64,000 nucleotides of DNA from an uncultured Candidatus Saccharibacteria bacterium. Its GTDB lineage: Bacteria > Patescibacteriota > CPR2 > UBA1875 > CAIMLA01. The stretch covers positions 91,464 through 155,463 of the forward strand of contig CAZXMN010000001.1 in the NCBI GenBank assembly GCA_964641375.1. The letters are read 5' to 3'. The stretch's first letter is position 1; each line of letters opens with the position of its first letter. The position numbers and the translations under genes are program-made. Shown here piece by piece: positions 7,581-51,053 of the stretch. The notes under the pieces are model-generated. The model worked only from the letters and a program-made list of their open reading frames with translations. It had not been told where the DNA came from and made no database searches.

Positions 7581-7743
7581 TGTTCACCTTTTTTAACACA
7601 ATAAAATATATTTCGACAGATAGACAGTTTCCATTTCTAGACTATTCTATCCCCCGACGCGTGCTTGTTTATACTTAATTAACGCATGAAATATTATATA
7701 GAAATTCAGAGAGAATGTCAACGATTTTGTGTGTAAAACGTAA

Positions 7744-7775
7744 GAGGACCGACTACCCGTAGGTAATTGGTCCTC
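7744..7775 (-). terminator. GC-rich stem-loop immediately 3-prime of the island A ORF; candidate intrinsic terminator
   Basis: GAGGACC...GGTCCTC 7-bp outer stem with an inner CTAC/GTAG stem. On the minus strand it is followed by TTACGTTTT. Confidence 0.45.
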
Positions 7776-7803
7776 AGAACGTCGAAAGTGGTACTTACAG
7801 AAG

Positions 7804-8169
7804 TTACTTGATCTCTTCGTCCGGAACGAACATCGTGATCGCGACGTTGGCCAGCCGCTTGTGCTGGCAGTCGTATTCGTTCGCGACGAAGTCGTAGATC
7901 GGTCCGATCCCCTTCTTGAGAGGCTGGATCGATACGCCGTAACCGCCCTTCATGCCCACCACGCGAGCTTGACCAGGTTCCTCCATGAAACCATGGTCCA
8001 GAAGCCATGCTGTGCCATGCTCGGTGAGCTCCTGACGGAACTTCTCACCGTTCTTGTCGTCGCGCACCGCATCGGTCTCGATGCAAGTGTCGCCGATCTT
8101 GCTCTCGACGCCTGAGCTTTCGAGCTCGGCCCCAAGCGCACGGATGGTTCTCTCATTGAGATCAGGCAT
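7804..8169 (-). CDS. Hypothetical 121-aa protein in a GC-rich cassette inserted between rplC and rpsJ (island A)
   Basis: ATG start at 8169 with GGGGG about 12 nt upstream; stop at 7804 followed by a hairpin. The amino-acid composition looks protein-like, and no family is recognised. Local GC is about 55-59% against low-40s % flanks. The antisense frames look like junk. Confidence 0.5.
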   Translation of the reverse strand: MPDLNERTIRALGAELESSGVESKIGDTCIETDAVRDDKNGEKFRQELTEHGTAWLLDHGFMEEPGQARVVGMKGGYGVSIQPLKKGIGPIYDFVANEYDCQHKRLANVAITMFVPDEEIK

Positions 8170-8275
8170 TACCTGTTGTGCCCCCTTTTCGATTGTCGAC
8201 GTTCATGTCTACTCTTGTAGACACTAAAATATAACATTTTTATGTCTATTTGTCAATATAAAGTAAGTAGATACC

Positions 8276-8658: not shown

Positions 8659-9834
8659 TTATTTATTGATTTTGGTTACTGCACCAGCACCAACTGTACG
8701 GCCACCTTCACGAATAGCGAAGCGAAGACCTTCTTCGATAGCGATTGGCTGAATAAGTTTAACCTTCATTTTGACGTCATCACCAGGCATAACCATTTCG
8801 CCGTCAAATTCGATTTCGCCAGTTACGTCAGTCGTACGGATGTAGAACTGAGGCTTATAGCCCTTGAAGAAAGGCGTATGACGACCACCCTCGTCCTTGG
8901 TCAAGACATAGACTTGAGCGTCGAACTCGGTGTGAGGTGTGATAGAGCCTGGCTTAGCCAGAACCATACCACGTTCAATGTCGGCTTTTTCAATACCGCG
9001 GAGTAACAGACCAGCATTGTCGCCAGCTTGACCTTGCTCAAGTTGTTTCTTGAACATTTCAATACCGGTAACGACCGTCTTGCGAGTAGGTTTAATACCA
9101 ACAATTTCAACTTCATCGTTAAGTTTCACAGTACCACGAGCGATAGCGCCGGTAGCAACCGTTCCACGTCCCTTGATGCTGAAAACGTCTTCAACAGGCA
9201 TAAGGAATGGCTTGTCGATGTCGCGAACTGGATCTGGAATATAGTTATCAAGTGCGTCCATAAGTTCTGTGATGGCACCAACATACTTCTCGTCACCTTC
9301 AAGAGCCTTGAGAGCTGAACCACGAATAATAGGAGTGTTATCTCCGTCAAATTCGTATTTAGTCAAAAGCTCACGAATTTCCATCTCAACGAGATCAAGC
9401 ATTTCAGCATCATCAACCATATCAACTTTGTTCATGAAAACAACGATTTTTGGTACACCAACTTGCTTAGCGAGTAGGATGTGCTCACGAGTCTGAGGCA
9501 TAGGACCGTCAGTGGCAGCAACTACAAGAATAGCGCCGTCCATCTGAGCAGCACCGGTAATCATGTTTTTGACGTAGTCAGCATGTCCTGGGCAGTCGAC
9601 ATGGGCGTAGTGACGCTTCTCTGTCTCATACTCAGAGTGGTGAGTAGCGATGGTAATACCGCGCTCTCTCTCTTCTGGAGCGTTGTCAATTTCGTCAAAC
9701 TTCTCAACCTTAGCCATACCTTTCTTGCCCTGAACAGCAAGAATAGCAGCGGTTAGAGTCGTTTTACCATGGTCAACGTGTCCAATTGTACCGACGTTTA
9801 CATGGGGTTTTGTTCTCTGATAAACTTCAGCCAT
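8659..9834 (-). CDS. tuf: Elongation factor Tu
   Basis: [31 protein letters not shown]...; G-domain motifs [14 protein letters not shown] and NKVD. The likely ATG is at 9834; the track ORF is extended upstream. Confidence 0.95.
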
Positions 9835-9927
9835 TTTGTTCCCTTCTTTTATCTTTTTAACTTTTCTTTGACAATCCAAACCCTCCACACGCTTGGCGCG
9901 GAGAAAATGTATTTAGTTTGCCTACGA

Positions 9928-9956
9928 ATTCTACTATAAATTACTACTTTGTGCAA
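9928..9956 (-). promoter_or_regulatory. Candidate sigma70-type promoter for tuf (TTGCAC-N17-TAGAAT on the minus strand)
   Basis: -35 at 9951-9956 and -10 at 9928-9933 with a 17-bp spacer, about 90 nt upstream of the tuf ATG. Confidence 0.4.
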
Positions 9957-10012
9957 TAGTTTTGATAAACGAAAAGGCCACGTACCCGCCTAGTCGTCTG
10001 CTTTCACAGAAC

Positions 10013-10033
10013 TTGCGTGTTCGTGACCCTACT
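10013..10033. repeat. 21-bp direct repeat copy 1 (ttgcgtgttcgtgaccctact)
   Basis: Matches 10241-10261 at 20 of 21 positions. Lies just 3-prime of small ORF1 and overlaps its stop. Confidence 0.8.
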
Positions 10034-10217
10034 GGTTGCTCTCGGAGCCAGAGATGGCTTCGTCGTAACGACGAAGATTCTCCTTACGATCGTGATCCTC
10101 CTCTGCCCGCCGACGACCTTCAGTGAGACCGGTGCGGAAAACCGTTCCGACAAGAACGAATACGAGGAGTACCAGCGCCAGAATCGAGAAGACTATCGCC
10201 CAAACTGCAAGACTCAC
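10029..10217 (-). CDS. Small single-pass membrane peptide 1 (62 aa, GTG start) in GC-rich island B
   Basis: MSLAVWAIVFSILALVLLVFVLVG then a charged tail. The N-terminal WAIV motif is shared with peptide 3. GAGGGGGG lies upstream. Confidence 0.45.
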   Translation of the reverse strand: MSLAVWAIVFSILALVLLVFVLVGTVFRTGLTEGRRRAEEDHDRKENLRRYDEAISGSESNQ

Positions 10218-10240
10218 AGAACTACCCCCCTCGAGAAAAA

Positions 10241-10261
10241 TTGCGTGTTCGTGGCCCTACT
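10241..10261. repeat. 21-bp direct repeat copy 2 (ttgcgtgttcgtggccctact)
   Basis: 20/21 identical to copy 1. Lies just 3-prime of small ORF2. Confidence 0.8.
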
Positions 10262-10416
10262 CAGTCGTCATGGGAGTAGCTGAGTTTGACCTCTTCCTCG
10301 GCGTTGAACCTCCTGACTCTCTTAGAGAAGATCACCAAAATGTTCACGGCGAGGTAGACCAAGAGTCCGATGATTACCGCTAAAACCTCATAAATGAAAC
10401 AGCCAATCCGTTTCAT
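10261..10416 (-). CDS. Small single-pass membrane peptide 2 (51 aa) in island B
   Basis: ATG at 10416 preceded by AAATGGGAGGAACG (strong SD). MKRIGCFIYEVLAVIIGLLVYLAVNILVIF then a charged tail. Confidence 0.5.
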   Translation of the reverse strand: MKRIGCFIYEVLAVIIGLLVYLAVNILVIFSKRVRRFNAEEEVKLSYSHDD

Positions 10417-10468
10417 CGTTCCTCCCATTTCATTTAAAGAGTTCAGTAGCGGCTCTGCATTGAGGATT

Positions 10469-10582
10469 CTAATCCTCTTCGTAGAGATCCTGGTAAAGAT
10501 GAACAAGCGCCTCGAGGGCAACTAAGACCATGACAGCACCTGCGGCGATTACCACGACGATAGCCCATCCCCACCAAGGCAT
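10469..10582 (-). CDS. Small single-pass membrane peptide 3 (37 aa) in island B
   Basis: ATG at 10582 preceded by GGGGGAATC; MPWWGWAIVVVIAAGAVMVLVALEALVHLYQDLYEED. Too short for the ORF track. Paralogous to peptide 1 through the WAIV motif. Confidence 0.45.
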   Translation of the reverse strand: MPWWGWAIVVVIAAGAVMVLVALEALVHLYQDLYEED

Positions 10583-10642
10583 GATTCCCCCAGTTTTCTC
10601 AGGTACGCGCCGCCAGGCGCGAACACTTGGCTTTGTGCCGTG

Positions 10643-10671
10643 ATTATAATGCAGAAATGAATTATTTGCAA
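10643..10671 (-). promoter_or_regulatory. Candidate near-consensus promoter (TTGCAA-N17-TATAAT) reading into island B
   Basis: -35 at 10666-10671 and -10 at 10643-10648 on the minus strand with a 17-bp spacer. Immediately downstream of the fusA terminator. A CGCGCC/GGCGCG hairpin lies in the leader. Confidence 0.5.
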
Positions 10672-10675
10672 TAAT

Positions 10676-10700
10676 AAAAGAGGCCTGGAAGGCCTCTTTT
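10676..10700 (-). terminator. Intrinsic terminator downstream of fusA
   Basis: AAAAGAGGCC-tgga-aGGCCTCTTTT hairpin with T-run. Confidence 0.6.
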
Positions 10701-10729
10701 ATTTGAACAAATTATTTATTCAATAATTA

Positions 10730-12820
10730 TTACTCTGCCTGTTTCTTGCCACGTTTGGCAATAATTTCAACCGCAACGTTACCAGGAACTTCCTCGTAAT
10801 GATCAAATTCCATGGTACTAGTACCACGACCTTGGGTCATAGAACGAAGGTTCGTTGCATAACCAAACATTTCGGCTAGTGGCACGAATGCGTCCACAAT
10901 TTTGGCATTACCACGATCGGACATTTGTTGGATGCGACCACGTTTCGAGTTCAAATCGCCCATAATATCACCCATGTATTCCTCTGGAACAGTAACTTCA
11001 ACTTTCATGATAGGCTCAAGTATAATAGGAGTCGCTTTACGGACACCTTCTTGTACAGCCATGGAACCGGCGATTTTGAAGGCCATTTCATTCGAGTCAA
11101 CTTCATGGAAAGAGCCATCATAAAGCGTGACTTTGACGTCAACAACCGGATAACCAGCAATGACACCGTTATCAAGCGCCTCTTTGACACCGTTTTGAAC
11201 TGGATTGATGTATTCCTTCGGAATTGCGCCACCAACGATCTTGTTGATGAATTCGAAACCAGCGCCCTGTTCGTTTGGTTCTACTTCAAGCCAAACATGA
11301 CCATATTGACCACGACCACCTGATTGACGGATGAACTTACCTTCTTGTTTGACACTTGATTTGATAGTCTCGCGATACGCAACCTGAGGGCGTCCGACAT
11401 TGGCCTCAACCTTGAATTCACGTTTCATACGGTCAACGATAATATCGAGATGAAGTTCGCCCATACCGGCAATAATAGTTTGGCCGGTTTCCTCGTCAGA
11501 ATGAACTCGGAAAGTTGGATCTTCTTCAGCCAGTCTAGAGAGTGCGATACCCATTTTCTCTTGATCAGCCTTGGTCTTTGGCTCGATAGCCACCTGGATA
11601 ACCGGTTCTGGGAAAGTAATGTTTTCTAGAAGAACTGGATGTGCAGGATCACAAATCGTATTACCAGTTAAAGTATTTTTGAGACCTACTGCAGCAGCAA
11701 TCTCGCCCGCATACACTTCACTCACCTCTTCACGAGTATTGGCATGCATACGAACGATACGTCCGATACGCTCTTTCTCACCTGAAGCTACATTCAAAAC
11801 ATAACTACCAGAAGTGAGTTTACCGCGATAAACACGAAGGAAAGCCAGTTTACCGACGAACGGATCAGCAGCAATTTTGAAAACAAGACCGCAGAATGGA
11901 CCTTCGTCAGATGTTTCAACATCAACTTCTTCACCTGTCTTTGGATCCTCACCCTTTGCAGGTGGAACTTCTAGCGGACTTGGCAGATAATCAATCACGG
12001 CGTCAAGCATCGGCTGGACACCTTTATTCTTGAGTGCGGTACCGGCAAAAACACCAACAATATCACCCTTAATAGTAGCCGTACGCATAGCAGCTTTGAG
12101 TTCACCGACACTAGGCTCAACGCCCTCGAAGAATTTCTCTAATAGTGCGTCGTCGGTTTCGGAAATTTTTTCTACCATCACAGCACGGAATTCTTTGGCC
12201 TTATCTAGCATATCAGCAGGGACTTCAGCAATATGCTGTTCCTTGCCCATATCTTCATTACCGTAGTTAATTGACTTCATTTCCATGAGGTCAATAACGC
12301 CGGAAAAACCGGATTCCATACCGATAGGCAGCTGCATTGCTACAGCGTTAGCTCCAAGACGGTCTTTGATAGATTCAAGTGACATATAGAAATCAGCACC
12401 GATAGCATCGAGCTTGTTGACAAAAGCAATACGTGGAACGTTATATTTATCAGCTTGACGCCAAACAGTCTCCGACTGTGGTTCAACACCGTTTTTACCG
12501 TCAAAGACCACTACAGCGCCATCAAGTACACGAAGAGAACGCTCAACCTCAACTGTGAAGTCTACGTGTCCTGGTGTATCAATAATGTTGATGCGATGAT
12601 CATGCCAGAAACAGGTTGTAGCAGCAGACGTGATAGTGATACCACGTTCTTGCTCTTGCTCCATCCAGTCCATAGTGGCAGCGCCTTCATGCACTTCACC
12701 AATTTTGTGAGTACGTCCGGTGTAGTAAAGGATACGCTCAGTGACCGTCGTTTTACCGGCGTCAATGTGAGCAGCAATTCCAATGTTACGCGTCTTGTCT
12801 AGTGAATATTCTCTAGGCAT
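10730..12820 (-). CDS. fusA: Elongation factor G
   Basis: 696 aa [28 protein letters not shown]..., EF-G domain order. Confidence 0.95.
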
Positions 12821-35084: not shown

Positions 35085-35780
35085 TTATTCTTCTTCTTTT
35101 TCCGGTTCTACCGTTTCTGTGTTTTCTTCCACTTCGGCACCTTCACCATCTTTACCGTGCTCAAGGTCATTTTCTGCTTTATCAATGCCTTCTGCCACTT
35201 CTTCCTCTTGAATTTCTTGATGATCACTCTCAGCTTCGTCAGGAGTCACGATATCCTCTGCATCAGCCTCTTTGTTCTCGGCTTTTGCGATTTCGTCTAT
35301 AGAAACTTCTTTTGTTTCGATCTCGTTGTCTTTGATTTCAGTTGCATCAAGCTCGGTAATTTCAGCATCTAAGTCTTCGGTCGCTGGAGCTAAATCCTCA
35401 GGTTTGAGTTCTTCTTCTTTCACATTGACAGCGAGTGAATCAAACCTCTGGTCCTTAAGCTTAGCAGCTTTACCACGTAGATCACGAAGATATGTCAGAT
35501 AAGCGCGGCGGACTTCAGCTCTTTTGCGAATTTCAATTTTCGCAAGCTTTGGCGACTGGATAAGAAAAGTACGCTCAACACCAATGCCATAAGAAATCTT
35601 ACGAACTGTGAAGGTTTGCTGGACACCGCTACCTTTGACACGGATTACTACGCCTTCAAAAACTTGGATACGTTCTTTGCTACCTTCAATAATTTTAGTA
35701 TGTACACGAACAGTGTCACCAGGTTTTAGATCTGGGACGTTCTTTAACTGTTTATCTGTCATGTCGTCAATTGCTTTCAT
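35085..35780 (-). CDS. rplS: 50S ribosomal protein L19 with a long acidic C-terminal extension
   Basis: The N-terminal ~115 aa match the L19 family. They are followed by ~115 aa rich in Glu/Asp. Confidence 0.88.
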
Positions 35781-35905
35781 CTTTTCTCCTGTAACACGCG
35801 AGGAATATTATAGCGGATTTAAACATCTTCGTCAACCAATAAATACGTAAAAGGCGCGTTCCACCTTGCTTTTATACATTGGCATAACGCGCCTTGTTCA
35901 CCTTC

Positions 35906-35942
35906 GGGGCTCCGCACCGTTTGCGCAGCGGTGCGGAGCCCC
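35906..35942. other. Perfect 14-bp GC-rich inverted repeat (stem-loop) at the 3-prime edge of island C
   Basis: GGGGCTCCGCACCG-tttgcgcag-CGGTGCGGAGCCCC. A second hairpin, CGTCC-acgcggccgcg-GGACG, lies at 35951-35971. No U-tract follows either. Confidence 0.7.
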
Positions 35943-36007
35943 TAGGGTATCGTCCACGCGGCCGCGGGACGAAGAGTTGTCAAACTAGGAAGCCAAACGA
36001 GCTGGAC

Positions 36008-36448
36008 CTACCTCATGTCGTTGGCTCGTTCTTGGTCCTCGACGAGCATCCTGGGGTCCAAACCTCGCTGGACTACTGTCGAAGAGTGAGGACACGGGTT
36101 GCACCCCATCGTACTCGTACGCCAGGATCGAACGTCCTTCAGCACCTCATCCCGAACCGGACGAGGAATGCTGTAGGGATTGCCAGGGCTCTCAGCCAGG
36201 AAGGCCTCGAGATGCCGCATAACCGTACAGACCGTAGGGTCGTCACAGTTGTGCTGGGCGACGCCATGGAGCCTATCCCTCAGAGCGAGGATCTGTGCAG
36301 CTGCGTGGACTTCCCCACTGCCGGTAAAGTGCCGACCAGCGGTTTCAACCTCCACTACAGCTTGAGAAATCCTCTCCTCGGTCGGATGTGAAAGAACCTC
36401 CTTGTGGATCTTCTGAAGATCCAGAACCCCTGTAACGGACTCGCTCAT
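36008..36448 (-). CDS. Hypothetical 146-aa protein (island C, downstream gene of a two-gene cassette)
   Basis: ATG at 36448 with GAAGGG SD. His/Cys-rich. GC about 58%. No family recognised. Confidence 0.45.
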   Translation of the reverse strand: MSESVTGVLDLQKIHKEVLSHPTEERISQAVVEVETAGRHFTGSGEVHAAAQILALRDRLHGVAQHNCDDPTVCTVMRHLEAFLAESPGNPYSIPRPVRDEVLKDVRSWRTSTMGCNPCPHSSTVVQRGLDPRMLVEDQERANDMR

Positions 36449-36478
36449 CTTTGTTGCCCTTCTTCTGTGATTGCGGCG

Positions 36479-36688
36479 CTAGGCCGCGGGCTGCGGCTGG
36501 GCGGAACGGACTGAGATGAGACTCCTACTCGCTTTGAGCTTGGTGGTGCCTTCCCCTTGGGCGAGGACGTTTCCCTTGGTGTCCTTCGCCATAGCGACGA
36601 CGTTGCCACGACTGACACGATTGTAGCCGTGACTACGTGTATCCCTCACGAACACGATCCGAACTGGGGTCTTACCTATCATGGCCAT
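36479..36688 (-). CDS. Hypothetical 69-aa protein (island C, upstream gene)
   Basis: ATG at 36688 preceded by GGGGGAAAGAGT; 30-nt gap to the 146-aa ORF. A candidate TTGCTA-N17-TATGAT promoter lies upstream in AT-rich DNA. Confidence 0.45.
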   Translation of the reverse strand: MAMIGKTPVRIVFVRDTRSHGYNRVSRGNVVAMAKDTKGNVLAQGEGTTKLKASRSLISVRSAQPQPAA

Positions 36689-36858
36689 ACTCTTTCCCCC
36701 AAAGCCTCGAAGTGACCTTTCACTAAGACACTTCTTGGTTAGGGACTGCCGTGCGCCATACGCTCACCTTCTTCTGCTAGATTGACTGACAAAGAACAAT
36801 ACAAAAAATATCATACAATAATTATTCGCTTTTAGCAAGCCTTTTATATCAAAAAAAT

Positions 36859-39800
36859 TTAATTTTCGTTTAAGCGTTTGCGAATTGAATCCGCTAGCTT
36901 TTCTGAATATTTAATCCCAAAAGGTAATTTCACTTTTTTAGGTCCTGAGGGTCCGTTCGGAACAAAGACATAGACTGGCGCTTCGCCCTTATTCGCAGCT
37001 AATTTATATTTGATATCATTTAAAGCCTCCGCGGTAGTACCACGTGGTATAAAAATGTCTACAACTCCCTTGCTGTCAATCTGCACGGATTGAGTGATTA
37101 ACGGATCAATTACCTGCATTTCAGCTTCCTCCTGGTTTTCCGTAAGTTTAATAGCTTTATCTACAATCACCTTGATTTGCCCGTCTTTTGTGCTCACCTT
37201 ACCGCGAATCAAAATAATATTACCAGTGACCCAAAGATCGGGAGTTTCTTCAATCACCTTAGGAAATACTATCAACTCAGTTTTTCCCGTATGATCCTCA
37301 AACCAAGCAAAATACATAAGTTGCTTAGTCCTGGTCATTACTTTTTGGATATTTGCAAGAACTCCGCCAATTTTGACAGTTTGATTGTTCATTTCTTCGG
37401 TAAGTTCAACTATAGGATTTACTTTGAGTTTCAAAAGCTGTTCCTTGTATTCGTTCATTGGATGCTCTGATATATAAATGCCGAGCAAGTCTTTTTCATA
37501 CCTAAGTTTCTCAGCAGTTGACATCTTGGTCTGGGCTGGTTCAAGTTTGAGAGATGGCATTTCTACTCCACTACCACCAAAAAGATCAATCTGACCGTTG
37601 GCAGCAGTACCTTGAGCCTTTGATGAATAAGATAATATGCGCTCCATATTGGCAAGCAGAGTCGCCCTCTCGCCGAATTCGTCCATTGCTCCGCTTTTAA
37701 TAAGTGATTCCAGCATTTTCTTATTAACTTCCGACGTATGAACACGTTTTGCAAAGTCTTCAACAGAAGAGAATTTGCCACCTTCTTCTCTAGCAGCCAG
37801 AATGGCCTCAATCGGCCCCATACCTACATTTTTGATTGCCATCAGACCAAAACGTATCTTTCCTGTCTCTTTCACAACACCAAACTCCGCAAAAGATTCA
37901 TTGACATCCGGGGGCAAAACTTCAATCCCCATTCGCTGACATTCGTCAATTTCAATAGTTATACGATCCATGTTGCCGTAGTCAGAAGTCATAAGCGCAG
38001 ACATGAATGCAGCCGGATAGTGAGCCTTCAGATTTGCAGTCCAATAGGAAATAAGAGCATAACAGGCAGCATGAGACTTATTGAAAGCATATTGTGCAAA
38101 AGTCTCCCAACCATCGAATATTTCATTTGCCAACTTCTCAGGGACGTCATTTGTATCCTTTGCACCCTTTACGAATTCACCCCTCATTTGCTTTAAAAGC
38201 GTAGGATTCTTTTTACCGATTGCCTTACGCAAAGTATCAGCTTGTCCACCTGTAAAACCAGCTAAATCTTTCGATACTTGCATAACTTGTTCCTGATAAA
38301 CCGTAATCCCATAGGTATTCTTGAGTGCGGTCTCCATAGCTGGATGCTGATATTTAATAGCTTTCTTGCCATGTTTACGAGCGATAAACTCGGGGATATT
38401 TTCCATAGGACCCGGCCTATATAGAGCACCCATAGCAATAATGTCTTCAAAAACAGTCGGTTTTAACTCCTTTATATAGCGTTTCATCCCAGCTGACTCA
38501 AACTGGAAAACTCCAGTAGTTTCACCTTTAGATAATAGTTTGTATGTTTGAGCATCATCAATGGGCATCGTATACAAATCGATATCTACATCATTGACCT
38601 TCTTGATGATGCGCATTGCGTTTTTGATGACTGTCAGGTTAGAGAGTCCCAAAAAGTCCATCTTAAGTAGTCCGAGCTCCTCTATCGCATGCATTTCATA
38701 TTGTGTATTTGTTGCTAGATCGCCCCTAGTCGCCCGCTGCAGTGGAGTATATTGGACTAAAGGATCCTTGGATATCACCACACCGGCAGCATGAGTAGAA
38801 GAATGCCTGGCCACTCCTTCCAGTTTCGTCGCAAGGTCGATAAGATGTTTTACGTCTAGTTCACTAGTATAGGCCGCTCTGAGTTCTTGGCTAGTGTTTA
38901 ATGCCTCAGAAAGTTTAATATTGAGGACTTCCGGTACCATCTTGGCAATTCTATCAACGTCTCCATAAGCTAGTCCTAGTACTCTACCCACATCACGGAT
39001 GGCATTTCTAGCTTTCATAGTACCAAAAGTGATTATCTGTGCCACTCGATCCTGGCCATATTTTTCGGTTACATAAGCAATTACCTCGTGACGCCTGTCG
39101 TCAGCAAAGTCCATGTCCACATCAGGCATAGAAATACGATCTGGATTCAGAAATCTCTCAAAAAGTAAGTCGTATTGCATCGGTTCTAGGTCAACAATAC
39201 CGAGAGCATAGGCCACAACCGACCCTGCAGCAGAACCACGACCTGGACCGACCACAATACCCTGATTTTTGGCCCAATTAACGTAATCCTGTACGATAAG
39301 GAAATAGCCCTCATAACCCATTTTTTCGATAACCTTCAGCTCGTATTCTAGTCTTTCTTTAAGTTCAGGTGTTTTTTTGCCATAACGTCTGGCAATGCCC
39401 TCGTCGACTAATTTCTCCAGATATTTACCTTCCGTCAAACCGTCTGGTGTTGGAAAGTCAGGTATCAAAATGCCACCTAGTTCGATAGTGAGATCGCACA
39501 TCTCGGCAATTTTCACTGTGTTTTCGAAGGCCTCTGGCACGTCCGGAAAAGCTGCTAGCAGATCTTCATAAGTGCGCATGCTGTTATCCATGTTCATCTT
39601 CATGCGATCTTCATCTGTGACCATTTTGCCCATTTGGACACAAAGAAGAACATCCTGAGCCTCTGCATCATCTTTATTCACATAGTGAACATCATTTGTC
39701 ACTACCAGACCAATTCCAGTCTCCTTCGAGATTTTTTTCAAACCTTCATTAGCAATACGTTGGTCTTCGGCGCCTGGCTGATCTTGCAACTCGAGATAAT

Positions 39801-40323
39801 AATAGTCTTTTCCAAAAATCTCTTGATATTCCAGGGCAGCTTTCTTCGCTTTCTCGTAATCTCCGTTTACGATTGTTCTGGCCGGTTCACCGTTTAAGCA
39901 TGCAGACATACCGATCAGTCCCTCTGAATATTGTCTAAGAGTATCTTTGTCTATTCTAGGTTTGTAATAATAGCCATCGATGTGTGCTATAGTTACCAAC
40001 TTCATAAGGTTCTGGTAACCGGTCTTATTCCTAGCTAGTAGTACCAAATGGTAAGGTTTAGCATCAACCCTCGCTTCTTTGTCATGTAAAGTTCTAGGTG
40101 CAACATAACATTCGCAACCAATTATCGGTTTTATATCTCTTTTTTTGGCTTCTTTGTAAAATTCGATTGCTCCGTACATGACACCATGATCAGTGATCGC
40201 CATGGCTGGCATCCCGAGCTCTTTAGCTTTATCTAGATAGTCTGGGATTTTACCCATACCATCAAGTAGCGAGTAGTGGGTATGGACATGCAGATGAACG
40301 AATTTTGCTTTGTTTTCGGCCAA
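36859..40323 (-). CDS. dnaE: DNA polymerase III alpha subunit
   Basis: 1154 aa ORF with an N-terminal PHP domain (HLHVHTHYSLLDG) plus polymerase core and OB domains. Confidence 0.93.
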   Translation of the reverse strand: MAENKAKFVHLHVHTHYSLLDGMGKIPDYLDKAKELGMPAMAITDHGVMYGAIEFYKEAKKRDIKPIIGCECYVAPRTLHDKEARVDAKPYHLVLLARNKTGYQNLMKLVTIAHIDGYYYKPRIDKDTLRQYSEGLIGMSACLNGEPARTIVNGDYEKAKKAALEYQEIFGKDYYYLELQDQPGAEDQRIANEGLKKISKETGIGLVVTNDVHYVNKDDAEAQDVLLCVQMGKMVTDEDRMKMNMDNSMRTYEDLLAAFPDVPEAFENTVKIAEMCDLTIELGGILIPDFPTPDGLTEGKYLEKLVDEGIARRYGKKTPELKERLEYELKVIEKMGYEGYFLIVQDYVNWAKNQGIVVGPGRGSAAGSVVAYALGIVDLEPMQYDLLFERFLNPDRISMPDVDMDFADDRRHEVIAYVTEKYGQDRVAQIITFGTMKARNAIRDVGRVLGLAYGDVDRIAKMVPEVLNIKLSEALNTSQELRAAYTSELDVKHLIDLATKLEGVARHSSTHAAGVVISKDPLVQYTPLQRATRGDLATNTQYEMHAIEELGLLKMDFLGLSNLTVIKNAMRIIKKVNDVDIDLYTMPIDDAQTYKLLSKGETTGVFQFESAGMKRYIKELKPTVFEDIIAMGALYRPGPMENIPEFIARKHGKKAIKYQHPAMETALKNTYGITVYQEQVMQVSKDLAGFTGGQADTLRKAIGKKNPTLLKQMRGEFVKGAKDTNDVPEKLANEIFDGWETFAQYAFNKSHAACYALISYWTANLKAHYPAAFMSALMTSDYGNMDRITIEIDECQRMGIEVLPPDVNESFAEFGVVKETGKIRFGLMAIKNVGMGPIEAILAAREEGGKFSSVEDFAKRVHTSEVNKKMLESLIKSGAMDEFGERATLLANMERILSYSSKAQGTAANGQIDLFGGSGVEMPSLKLEPAQTKMSTAEKLRYEKDLLGIYISEHPMNEYKEQLLKLKVNPIVELTEEMNNQTVKIGGVLANIQKVMTRTKQLMYFAWFEDHTGKTELIVFPKVIEETPDLWVTGNIILIRGKVSTKDGQIKVIVDKAIKLTENQEEAEMQVIDPLITQSVQIDSKGVVDIFIPRGTTAEALNDIKYKLAANKGEAPVYVFVPNGPSGPKKVKLPFGIKYSEKLADSIRKRLNEN

Positions 40324-50303: not shown

Positions 50304-50388
50304 TGGTGCCCGGGGCGGGACTTGAACCCGCAAGACCGAAGCCAACGGATTTTAAGTCCGTCGCGTATACCAATTCCGCCACCCGGGC
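50304..50388 (-). tRNA. tRNA-Leu (anticodon TAA), type II
   Basis: Acceptor GCCCGGG/CCCGGGC, T-arm GCGGG-TTCAAGT-CCCGC, anticodon loop CTTAAAA, CCA encoded. Confidence 0.85.
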
Positions 50389-50395
50389 GTATAAG

Positions 50396-50469
50396 TGGAG
50401 GCCTGACCCGGAATTGAACCGGGGTACGCGGTTTTGCAGACCGCTGCGTAACCACTCCGCCATCAGGCC
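50396..50469 (-). tRNA. tRNA-Cys (anticodon GCA)
   Basis: Hand-folded cloverleaf with anticodon stem-loop GCGGT-CTGCAAA-ACCGC and T-loop TTCAATT. Confidence 0.85.
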
Positions 50470-50490
50470 ACGTCTGAGGAAAAGATAAAA

Positions 50491-50565
50491 TGGAGCGGGA
50501 GACGGGGATCGAACCCGCGACCTCAACCTTGGCAAGGTTGCGCTCTACCGCTAAGCTACTCCCGC
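50491..50565 (-). tRNA. tRNA-Gly (anticodon GCC)
   Basis: Anticodon stem-loop CAACC-TTGCCAA-GGTTG, T-loop TTCGATC, CCA encoded. Confidence 0.85.
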
Positions 50566-50568
50566 AAG

Positions 50569-50644
<76 letters not shown>

Positions 50645-50657
50645 ATGATTATTTTTT

Positions 50658-50734
50658 TGGTGGGCGCCAAGGGATTCGAACCCCTGACCCTCTCGGTGTA
50701 AACGAGATGCTCTAACCAGCTGAGCTAGGCGCCC
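50658..50734 (-). tRNA. tRNA-Val (anticodon TAC)
   Basis: GGGCGCCTAGCTCAGCTGGTTAGAGC, anticodon loop TTTACAC, T-loop TTCGAAT. Confidence 0.85.
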
Positions 50735-50966
50735 ACGTCAGCGCAAGCTAACGTGTTACACAGAACCGCCAATAGGCGTCTGTTTCACACTTTCGCTATG
50801 CCTCCTCTCCAGTCAAAATCGACAGATTTTGCCTGAGGGGAAACGGAACGAAGTGGTCCCTGCCGAGAAAATTTGTAATTTTCTCGGAAAAAGGAACATC
50901 TACGAAGGTGCAGAGCGATTGGCTTTAGCCAACTCATGAAGACCGAAGTAGGATGCGACGACGCAG

Positions 50967-51053
50967 TGGTGCGGACGAGAGGACTTGAACCTCCAAGGCC
51001 TTGCGGCCACTAGCCCCTCATGCTAGCGCGTATACCAATTCCGCCACGCCCGC
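50967..51053 (-). tRNA. tRNA-Leu (anticodon GAG), type II
   Basis: Shares the D-arm TGGCGGAATTGGTATACGCG with the other two Leu tRNAs. Anticodon loop ATGAGGG, T-arm GGAGG-TTCAAGT-CCTCT. Confidence 0.8.

Follow-up and report, generated by a model that had tools for sequence, protein, structure and literature searches.

It is a general concept of bacterial pangenomics that chromosomes carry hot spots of gene turnover between core genes. In phages, the morons of Hendrix and colleagues are additional genes of deviant composition that bring a promoter and a terminator of their own and are inserted between conserved genes. In T4-type phages, indels and replacements of orphan genes are mediated by the PeSL elements, composites of a terminator and a promoter by which these genes are flanked (Arbiol et al. 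2010, PMC2839356; Comeau et al. 2014, PMC4122927). In this work we describe a small GC-rich unit of three predicted membrane peptide genes (pepA, pepB and pepC), which lies between fusA and tuf in an uncultured Candidatus Saccharibacteria bacterium. The unit is contained in a stretch of 64,000 nucleotides (assembly GCA_964641375.1, contig CAZXMN010000001.1, positions 91,464 to 155,463 of the forward strand), which was analysed as a whole and is referred to as the window. We consider it probable that the unit is an independent small operon occupying an 'expression slot' that is specific to the lineage and bordered by the fusA terminator and the tuf promoter, a slot in which a shell of expression signals is conserved and the cargo of genes turns over. 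The notable part is this conserved slot with its turning-over cargo inside the str/S10 cluster of a lineage of the candidate phyla radiation (CPR).

The slot shares with PeSL an arrangement in which conserved composites of a stem-loop terminator and a strong sigma-70-type promoter flank small orphan genes, and in both systems the modules are the places where close relatives differ by indels and replacements of orphan genes. It differs in being located on a cellular chromosome of the Patescibacteria, whereas PeSL are found in phage genomes. PeSL copies are many and dispersed, whereas the slot modules occupy one locus per 64-kb window and per 12-kb locus of a relative; moreover, the slot has an extra, conserved hairpin in the 5' untranslated region (5' UTR), and the set of modules at a second site (rpsJ-rplC, see below) is different. 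As with morons, the unit has its own promoter and terminator, is of atypical GC and codon composition, lies between conserved genes and is dispensable, relatives having empty sites. Unlike morons, it is not part of a prophage and has no adjacent phage genes, its flanks being core translation and transcription genes, and the shell is conserved vertically while only the cargo changes. By analogy, the slot would work like PeSL modules or morons yet fall outside both classes, being confined to one locus of a cellular chromosome. Variable accessory content in the same core-gene interval across related species is a feature shared with chromosomal hot spots, from which the slot differs by its very small cargo (0.6-3 kb), its position inside the str/S10 cluster and the strong constraint on its shell.

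A predicted separate transcription unit between fusA and tuf

All genes in this region are on the minus strand, in the order rpoB, rpoC, rpsL, rpsG, fusA, tuf, rpsJ, rplC, and the gap between fusA and tuf is 895 bp. Within it, at 9963-10671, a sigma-70-like promoter is followed by a 5'-UTR hairpin, three open reading frames (ORFs) led by Shine-Dalgarno (SD) sequences and a terminator with a long hairpin (Table 1). An earlier note on this DNA, made by a model from the letters alone, had placed one promoter in front of the three ORFs and another in front of tuf; both were found. The predicted signals thus support its view that a separate, compositionally atypical transcription unit lies between the fusA terminator and the tuf promoter.

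The GC content of the segment 9990-10630 is 0.521 (window mean 0.431), which is in the top 1.45% of all 641-bp windows, and the only other windows at this level are a tRNA cluster and another islet (see the last section). GC content at third codon positions (GC3) is 0.58, 0.69 and 0.57 in the three peptide ORFs, compared to 0.30-0.50 in 13 core genes. The GC-rich, atypical composition that the note had proposed was therefore confirmed by computation.

An interval of 931 bp spanning the fusA-tuf gap was recovered with 100% identity and full length from 13 contigs, and five more contigs were identical over the part that they held. Since these contigs come from different metagenome assemblies, an assembly chimera or artefact was rejected. 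The neighbours within 5 kb are rpoC, rpsL, rpsG, fusA, tuf, rpsJ and rplC; rpoBC, ribosomal protein genes and dnaE surround the site, and the genome carrying the slot is cellular.

The three minus-strand mini-ORFs are present as described before. They do not overlap, and their SD sequences (GGGGGA, 10586-10591; GGGAGG, 10421-10426; GAGGGGGG, 10225-10232), located 4-7 nt 5' of the start codons, are equal to or better than those of fusA, rpsG, rpsL and tuf. Each ORF encodes one strongly hydrophobic 19-residue stretch (Kyte-Doolittle 2.77, 2.97 and 3.19) followed by a charged tail, in agreement with the single helix and the charged or acidic tail claimed for each peptide. ORFs of at least 30 amino acids (aa) are commonplace in dinucleotide-preserving shuffles of the cassette (about three per shuffle). 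Among 10,000 such shuffles, however, at least one ORF of transmembrane (TM) helix grade occurred in 0.02% and at least two in none, compared to the three observed. The codon positions of the peptide ORFs are rich in G at position 1 and in T at position 2, as in real hydrophobic coding sequence.

No curated cut-off was reached by pepA, pepB or pepC in Pfam, NCBIfam, PADLOC or PHROG; the author of the note had recognized no family either. The best family match, between pepC and phrog_14464 'membrane protein' (26 bits, E 1.2e-5), is weak and compositional and reflects the helix and the charged tail. In an exhaustive HMMER search of 1.84 billion representatives pepB had exactly one relative, P0127, a protein of 51 aa that is 43% identical to pepB from end to end (E 1.5e-6); a '98%' variant, P0001, is only an alternative start call, and so is a 55-aa form of pepB. 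At the DNA level pepB and the P0127 gene align with zero indels, the rates of nonsynonymous (dN) and synonymous (dS) substitution are 0.42 and about 1.0 (dN/dS about 0.4), and identity is highest at the second codon position (0.60/0.73/0.58 for positions 1 to 3). Such a pattern is characteristic of translated genes on which purifying selection is relaxed. Judged from these features, the three peptides look like real genes and appear to be ordinary lineage-specific small proteins belonging to no described family.

The proposal that the 37- and 62-aa peptides are paralogues was not upheld: the shared WAIV amounts to four residues within two hydrophobic helices, and BLASTP gave no match between the two at E<1. 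A possible vestige of a leader (ATGCAGnGCnGC), very short and common to the pepB homologue's fragment (L206, see below), was seen 5' of pepB.

Table 1. Positions in the window of the slot, its borders and the second slot
Feature	Position	Strand	Remarks
fusA	10730-12820	minus	
fusA intrinsic terminator	10676-10700	minus	AAAAGAGGCC-TTCC-AGGCCTCTTTT; upstream border of the slot; read off the sequence
Cassette promoter	10643-10671	minus	TTGCAA-N17-TATAAT; 10/12 consensus matches
5' leader	10583-10642	minus	Hairpin CGCGCC-UGGC-GGCGCG at 10602-10621, then ACC and pepA SD
pepA	10469-10582	minus	37 aa, ATG; single TM helix, acidic tail (MPWWGWAIVVVIAAGAVMVLVALEALVHLYQDLYEED); first ORF past the leader
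pepB	10261-10416	minus	51 aa, ATG; single TM helix, KRVRR cluster, then acidic tail
Repeat copy 1	10238-10261	minus	Orphan 5' terminator arm at the pepB-pepC junction, partnerless
pepC	10029-10217	minus	62 aa, GTG; N-terminal TM helix, 35-aa charged tail
Slot terminator	9963-10032	minus	Three-tier hairpin; includes repeat copy 2 (10010-10033)
tuf promoter	9928-9956	minus	TTGCAC-N17-TAGAAT; downstream border of the slot; promoter scan
tuf	8659-9834	minus	
Second slot, rpsJ-rplC	7693-8256	minus	GC-rich; design like the fusA-tuf slot

Conserved signals and variable cargo in related species

Relatives were obtained by a search with the elongation factor G (EF-G) protein and by look-ups of exact proteins, and their loci were fetched. 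The nearest named EF-G sequences (Berkelbacteria, Saccharimonadales/Saccharimonadia and unclassified Patescibacteria) are about 75% identical, and a graded series of closer relatives shows 96, 95, 93, 92, 91 and 86% identity. Four-fold degenerate sites of fusA are merely 45-59% identical among the relatives, which are therefore counted as different species with synonymous sites near saturation.

The fusA-tuf interval of these species is highly variable. It is empty in the closest relative by EF-G, L179 (EF-G 96%), where its 175 bp hold the terminator and the tuf promoter, and also in L182 (91%, 198 bp) and L205 (86%, 167 bp). In L180 (95%, 353 bp) it contains an ORF-less remnant, whereas gene finders called three ORFs in L181 (93%, 1.7 kb), two in L189 (93%, 1.9 kb), three in L190 (92%, 2.2 kb) and seven in L191 (92%, 3.0 kb), and missed a few extra small SD-led ORFs in the units of the relatives. 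The placement of the cassette is not the exceptional one-off that it had seemed to be: throughout this clade the fusA-tuf spacer varies, with species-specific ORFs inside a conserved shell, and rpsJ-rplC is a second site of this kind. The insert in L180 (7092-7444), approximately 180 bp long, keeps only the 3' arm and the T-tract of the slot terminator; it contains a hairpin with an 8-bp stem (ATCCCCGG...CCGGGGAT) and looks like a decayed unit.

When the spacers were compared by blastn, only the promoter/leader, the terminator and the tuf promoter could be aligned, the cargo never. A hairpin and T-run equivalent to the fusA terminator is present 3' of fusA in L179, L180, L182, L191 and others, and the tuf promoter is kept in the empty-site species L179 and L182 and also in L180. 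Taking into account that synonymous sites are near saturation, the near identity of the shell points to strong constraint on the regulatory RNA and DNA parts.

At the upstream end of the unit, the -10 hexamer of the cassette promoter and the adjoining CACGsCA are kept in L190, L191 (two copies) and L206, a fragment that carries the pepB homologue. A 20-nt block of the leader (CGCGCCTGGCGGCGCGTACC) is identical (20/20) in the window, L181, L190 and L191. The leader hairpin occurs in a single copy in the 64-kb window and has no exact match among viral contigs. The variant leader sequences of L189 and L206 still fold as a hairpin (GUGCGCG-GAGA-CGCGCAC in L206); covariation of the hairpin was not demonstrable, the stem being near-invariant and the L206 variant misregistered in the alignment. 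In predicted folds, the ACC 3' of the hairpin can pair with the G-run of the SD.

At the downstream end, the terminator accounts for the direct repeat of 21 bp noted before. The repeat is indeed present (10013-10033 and 10241-10261), and can be extended to 24 bp (10010-10033 and 10238-10261; 22/24 identical), but its copies sit 3' of the 51- and 62-aa ORFs, i.e. of peptides 2 and 3 in the order of transcription and not of 1 and 2. By chance no such repeat is expected, and a third copy is absent across the 64 kb. The repeat is not an oddity of this cassette, since it makes up the 5' arm of a structured terminator of the intrinsic type that is kept in sister species. The copy after pepC is predicted to pair with CGTGGCC and to terminate the unit: a basal arm (GGGUCACGA.../...CGUGGCC) and an apical stem (UCUGU-GAAA-GCAGA) are followed by UUUUCGUUUA, which extends to about 9966. 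The folding free energy (dG) is -26 kcal/mol (z -3.1) and the covariance-model score is 73.8 bits. The same three-tier hairpin followed by UUUUCGUUUA was found in six instances from four species, with dG between -26 and -35.5 kcal/mol and z between -3.1 and -6.6. Seven of the 15 base pairs of their consensus show compensatory double changes, and the apical loops are mostly of 4 nt (GAAA or UUCG in four of the six). The window, L181 and L191 share the 21-nt 3' arm, GGTACGTGGCCTTTTCGTTTA, without a mismatch (21/21), and the second copy of L191 and the L180 remnant differ from it by one or two bases.

The six terminators were used to build a covariance model, which detected just those six in 293 kb including the whole window; the element is therefore locus-specific and not a dispersed repeat. 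A dispersed mobile repeat was also rejected as a candidate because motif and covariance-model searches placed the modules at the fusA-tuf locus only. Thirteen viral matches to a 16-mer of the terminator tail were taken as chance.

The other copy of the repeat stands without a partner at the pepB-pepC junction, where it is followed by an inserted G-run SD (GAGGGGGG), the pentamer TTCTG and the GTG start of pepC. In intact terminators this pentamer provides the 5' half of the apical stem. Two junctions of the very same kind were found in L191 (8216 and 9378), both having the order TAG-GGGGCCACGACACRCAA-SD-TTCTG-ATG. In seven of nine instances the TAG of the motif serves as stop codon for the unrelated ORF in front of it, including pepC, which ends in the first triplet of the terminator motif; the conserved block of L190 and L191 also takes in the final two codons (GGC TAC) of this ORF. 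Since the TAG doubles as the stop of unrelated ORFs, the ORFs are fused into the module at a fixed point, as recombination at the module would predict.

Short, mostly orphan ORFs of the same direction, with a recurring motif and a single promoter upstream, also characterize integron arrays and clusters of attC sites lacking integron-integrases (CALINs). Unlike attC, which is an imperfect palindrome of 57-141 nt with R and L cores, the motif of the slot is 20-24 nt long, is not self-complementary and represents half of a terminator hairpin. Moreover, there is at most one orphan copy per junction, and no integrase was found among the neighbours within 5 kb, the rest of the window not having been scanned for recombinases.

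In all-vs-all BLASTP and tblastn comparisons the cargo proteins were mostly unrelated to one another and to pepA, pepB and pepC. GC and GC3 are elevated in the cargo of all relatives, and many of the products are membrane proteins. Searches with 29 cargo proteins of all species gave no credible family in PADLOC, Pfam or PHROG, which leaves membership in a defence system unsupported. The ORF next to the leader encodes a small TM protein in seven of eight units, suggesting that a functional theme may be shared despite the lost sequence similarity; soluble proteins of 60-200 aa are also found in the units of sister species. Between L190 and L191, the TM ORFs next to the leader are collinear but 31% identical (EF-G 95%), thus some cargo appears to be inherited vertically and to diverge very fast.

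Other cargo changes its position. On L206 (1-1106) P0127 is the first ORF, directly past the slot promoter and a variant leader; a 93-aa ORF comes next, and then a homologue of the only ORF of unit A of L181 (31% identity, E 4e-12). In the window, in contrast, the pepB gene is second and flanked by pepA and pepC, both unique to this species. As the homologues of pepB and of the L181 unit-A gene are reshuffled on L206, cargo families recur in different positions and combinations; as far as can be judged from the sequences, the arrangement would be direct evidence that they recombine into different orders. Two units stand in tandem in L181, L190 and L191, joined by a conserved terminator-to-promoter composite of approximately 225 nt, which is kept between L181 and L191; composites are also present in L206.

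The second slot (Table 1) has a promoter (TTGACA-17-TATATT, 8256-8228), a hairpin terminator (7745-7774) and, downstream, the rplC promoter (7721-7693). It holds an ORF (7804-8169) of 121 aa with a GC3 of 0.75 and no family. The promoter/leader and the terminator are kept in L180, L181, L190 and L191, the cargo is not: the relatives hold from one to at least three other ORFs at this site. The cargo proteins of L180 and L190 are 32% identical. The 121-aa ORF was rejected as a homologue of this family (hhalign E 0.23, not significant). In L182 a gene for a 406-aa DEAD-box helicase (9081-10301; GC 0.385, native-like) was found between rpsJ and rplC, followed by a 100-aa ORF with a GC content of 0.60 and no family.

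Origin and turnover of the cargo

In the explanation that we consider probable, the conserved parts of the slot are the near-consensus sigma-70-type promoter, the 5'-UTR hairpin and the three-tier terminator of about 65 nt, and the cargo consists of fast-evolving small proteins of no described family, mostly of the membrane, the number, order and identity of which differ between species. Transcription of the unit would start at its own promoter and would not depend on fusA or tuf. The mRNA would be stabilised by the 5' hairpin and by the long hairpin at the 3' end, and the ACC past the leader hairpin may modulate access to the first SD. The orphan arm could be the scar of a recombination between slot modules that added pepC, together with its SD, at the terminator; if it is read in this way, turnover of the cargo would be driven largely by recombination at the conserved modules, in addition to very rapid divergence. 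As to function, our guess is that the peptides serve as dispensable accessory proteins of the envelope and are produced at a high level beside the translation genes, because their turnover, membrane bias and dispensability fit such a role; they would probably take part, at the membrane, in rapidly changing interactions such as exclusion of phages or competitors, immunity or contact with host cells.

Several points weigh against this explanation. The functional class proposed is a guess, and promoter, terminator and translation are predictions. The sample comprised seven related species with one locus each (about 12 kb), and L206 is a 1.1-kb fragment without context. All contigs of the species are identical, which precludes a within-species test of selection on pepA and pepC. 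Both of these lack a homologue: pepC has no relative in a collection of 5.8 billion protein sequences except its own start-codon variant, and pepA has none in the family libraries and the fetched loci. No donor was found in phage, plasmid or protein collections, leaving the GC3 of the cargo unexplained. Recombination at the modules is deduced from mosaic patterns, and in-place divergence together with birth and death of ORFs could yield part of these.

Carried to its end, the last point leads to pure in-place evolution, in which one ancestral operon of small membrane proteins would have diverged extremely fast, through frameshifts and through gain and loss of ORFs, under constraint on its RNA parts, and no cassettes would have been exchanged. 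The low identity of the collinear L190 and L191 ORFs, that of the L180 and L190 proteins at rpsJ-rplC and the recurrence of a TM protein next to the leader are compatible with such a history. The different positions and partners of the pepB family, the appearance of the L181 unit-A gene as third on L206, the duplicated terminator arms at ORF junctions of two species, the tandem duplication of units and the maintenance of a high GC3 in an AT-leaning genome are not, and we regard in-place evolution without exchange as unlikely. An opposite possibility is that the unit is a recently acquired foreign islet of the moron type, derived from a GC-richer donor (phage, plasmid or host bacterium) and inserted site-specifically, the 24-bp repeats being att-like sites or a target duplication. 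The GC3 nearly double that of core genes, the unit's own promoter and terminator, the empty site of the closest relative and the direct repeats on both sides of pepC would be in line with this. However, no similarity to the unit was found in phage and plasmid DNA and protein collections, nor in the 5.8-billion-protein collection outside this lineage. The presence of the promoter/leader and terminator at the same site in several sister species means that the shell is an old feature and was not imported; the repeat forms one strand of a covarying terminator hairpin and not a recombinase site; and the segment flanked by it is just 204 bp. Taken together, these observations make a recent import quite unlikely, slightly more so than evolution in place.

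The small size and hydrophobicity of the peptides and their charged tails raised the question, put forward in the earlier note, of a tandem type I toxin-antitoxin locus, in which membrane-damaging peptides are held in check by antisense or structured RNA, here with the leader and the terminator as the regulatory RNA. Loci of this type (hok/sok, ldr/rdl, ibs/sib, tisB/istR, zor/orz) also encode small single-helix peptides, are intergenic and sometimes tandem, are typically orphan-like and evolve fast, and in several of them the untranslated regions are better conserved than the peptide, as is the case here; the predicted pairing of ACC with the G-run SD would fit too. In contrast to type I loci, the slot is polycistronic, with three cistrons, strong SDs and a near-consensus promoter, and the units of sister species also encode soluble proteins. 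Pfam and NCBIfam searches at E<=1 gave no Hok, Ldr, Fst, TisB, Ibs or other toxin family. The antisense strand of 9960-10680 has no promoter-like site (a weak negative, as only a consensus scan was made), and the blastn comparison of spacers revealed no conserved antisense element in the relatives. The toxin reading is thus unsupported, and we consider a type I system very unlikely. It is hardly conceivable that the segment is non-coding, i.e. a structured RNA or decayed element with accidental ORFs, even though GC-rich islands of AT-leaning genomes are often RNA genes, ORFs of this size are common in shuffles, and the whole transcript folds somewhat better than shuffled sequences (z -3.0, 20 shuffles). 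None of the shuffled cassettes matched its three TM-grade ORFs, the SDs are correctly spaced, the pepB homologue has a coding substitution pattern, and the cargo sequence varies between species, whereas a functional RNA would be conserved. In Rfam only tRNAs reached the gathering score in the window, and no family reached this score or E<0.1 at the cassette (best sub-threshold match in 9850-10750, E 0.18), so that a structured RNA was rejected.

An extension of the slot explanation, which we put forward tentatively and hold to be possible but doubtful, is that the slot is selectively maintained in the essential str and S10 clusters of an ultra-small, episymbiotic lineage, where it recruits, shuffles and discards new small membrane proteins through recombination at its modules, and would be a cellular counterpart of PeSL and morons. 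If the slot were such a nursery, the high GC3 of the cargo would come from an unknown donor pool or from GC-biased conversion at a recombination hot spot.

Patescibacteria have tiny genomes, most of their lineage-specific small proteins are uncharacterised, and proteins of their surface and membrane are considered to mediate host-cell attachment and phage resistance. A conserved and presumably strongly expressed slot with turnover would give a defined place to seek fast-evolving envelope factors, would offer a natural set of promoter, leader and terminator for a group with almost no genetic tools, and would be a cellular example of gene shuffling mediated by modules, which has until now been described for phages. 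Although usually held to be invariant, the junctions fusA-tuf and rpsJ-rplC can gain and lose genes, which bears on marker-gene-based binning and on synteny-based annotation.

Other features of the window

The other peak of GC content is accounted for by an ordinary cluster of six tRNA genes (Leu, Cys, Gly, Phe, Val, Leu) at 50304-51053. Between an rplS-like gene (35085-35780) and dnaE (36859-40323) there is a third GC-rich islet (35818-36710, 57% GC). It contains minus-strand ORFs of 146 aa (36008-36448) and 69 aa (36479-36688), which have no family and no phage match. Their coding nature is less certain, as they are overlapped by a long ORF on the other strand. In the 5' UTR of tuf a stem-loop (CTCCGCGC-CAAG-CGTGTGGAG, 9881-9905) was observed. 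Its position is kept in L179, L180 and L182, where the base changes preserve pairing, and it is possibly a leader element of tuf.

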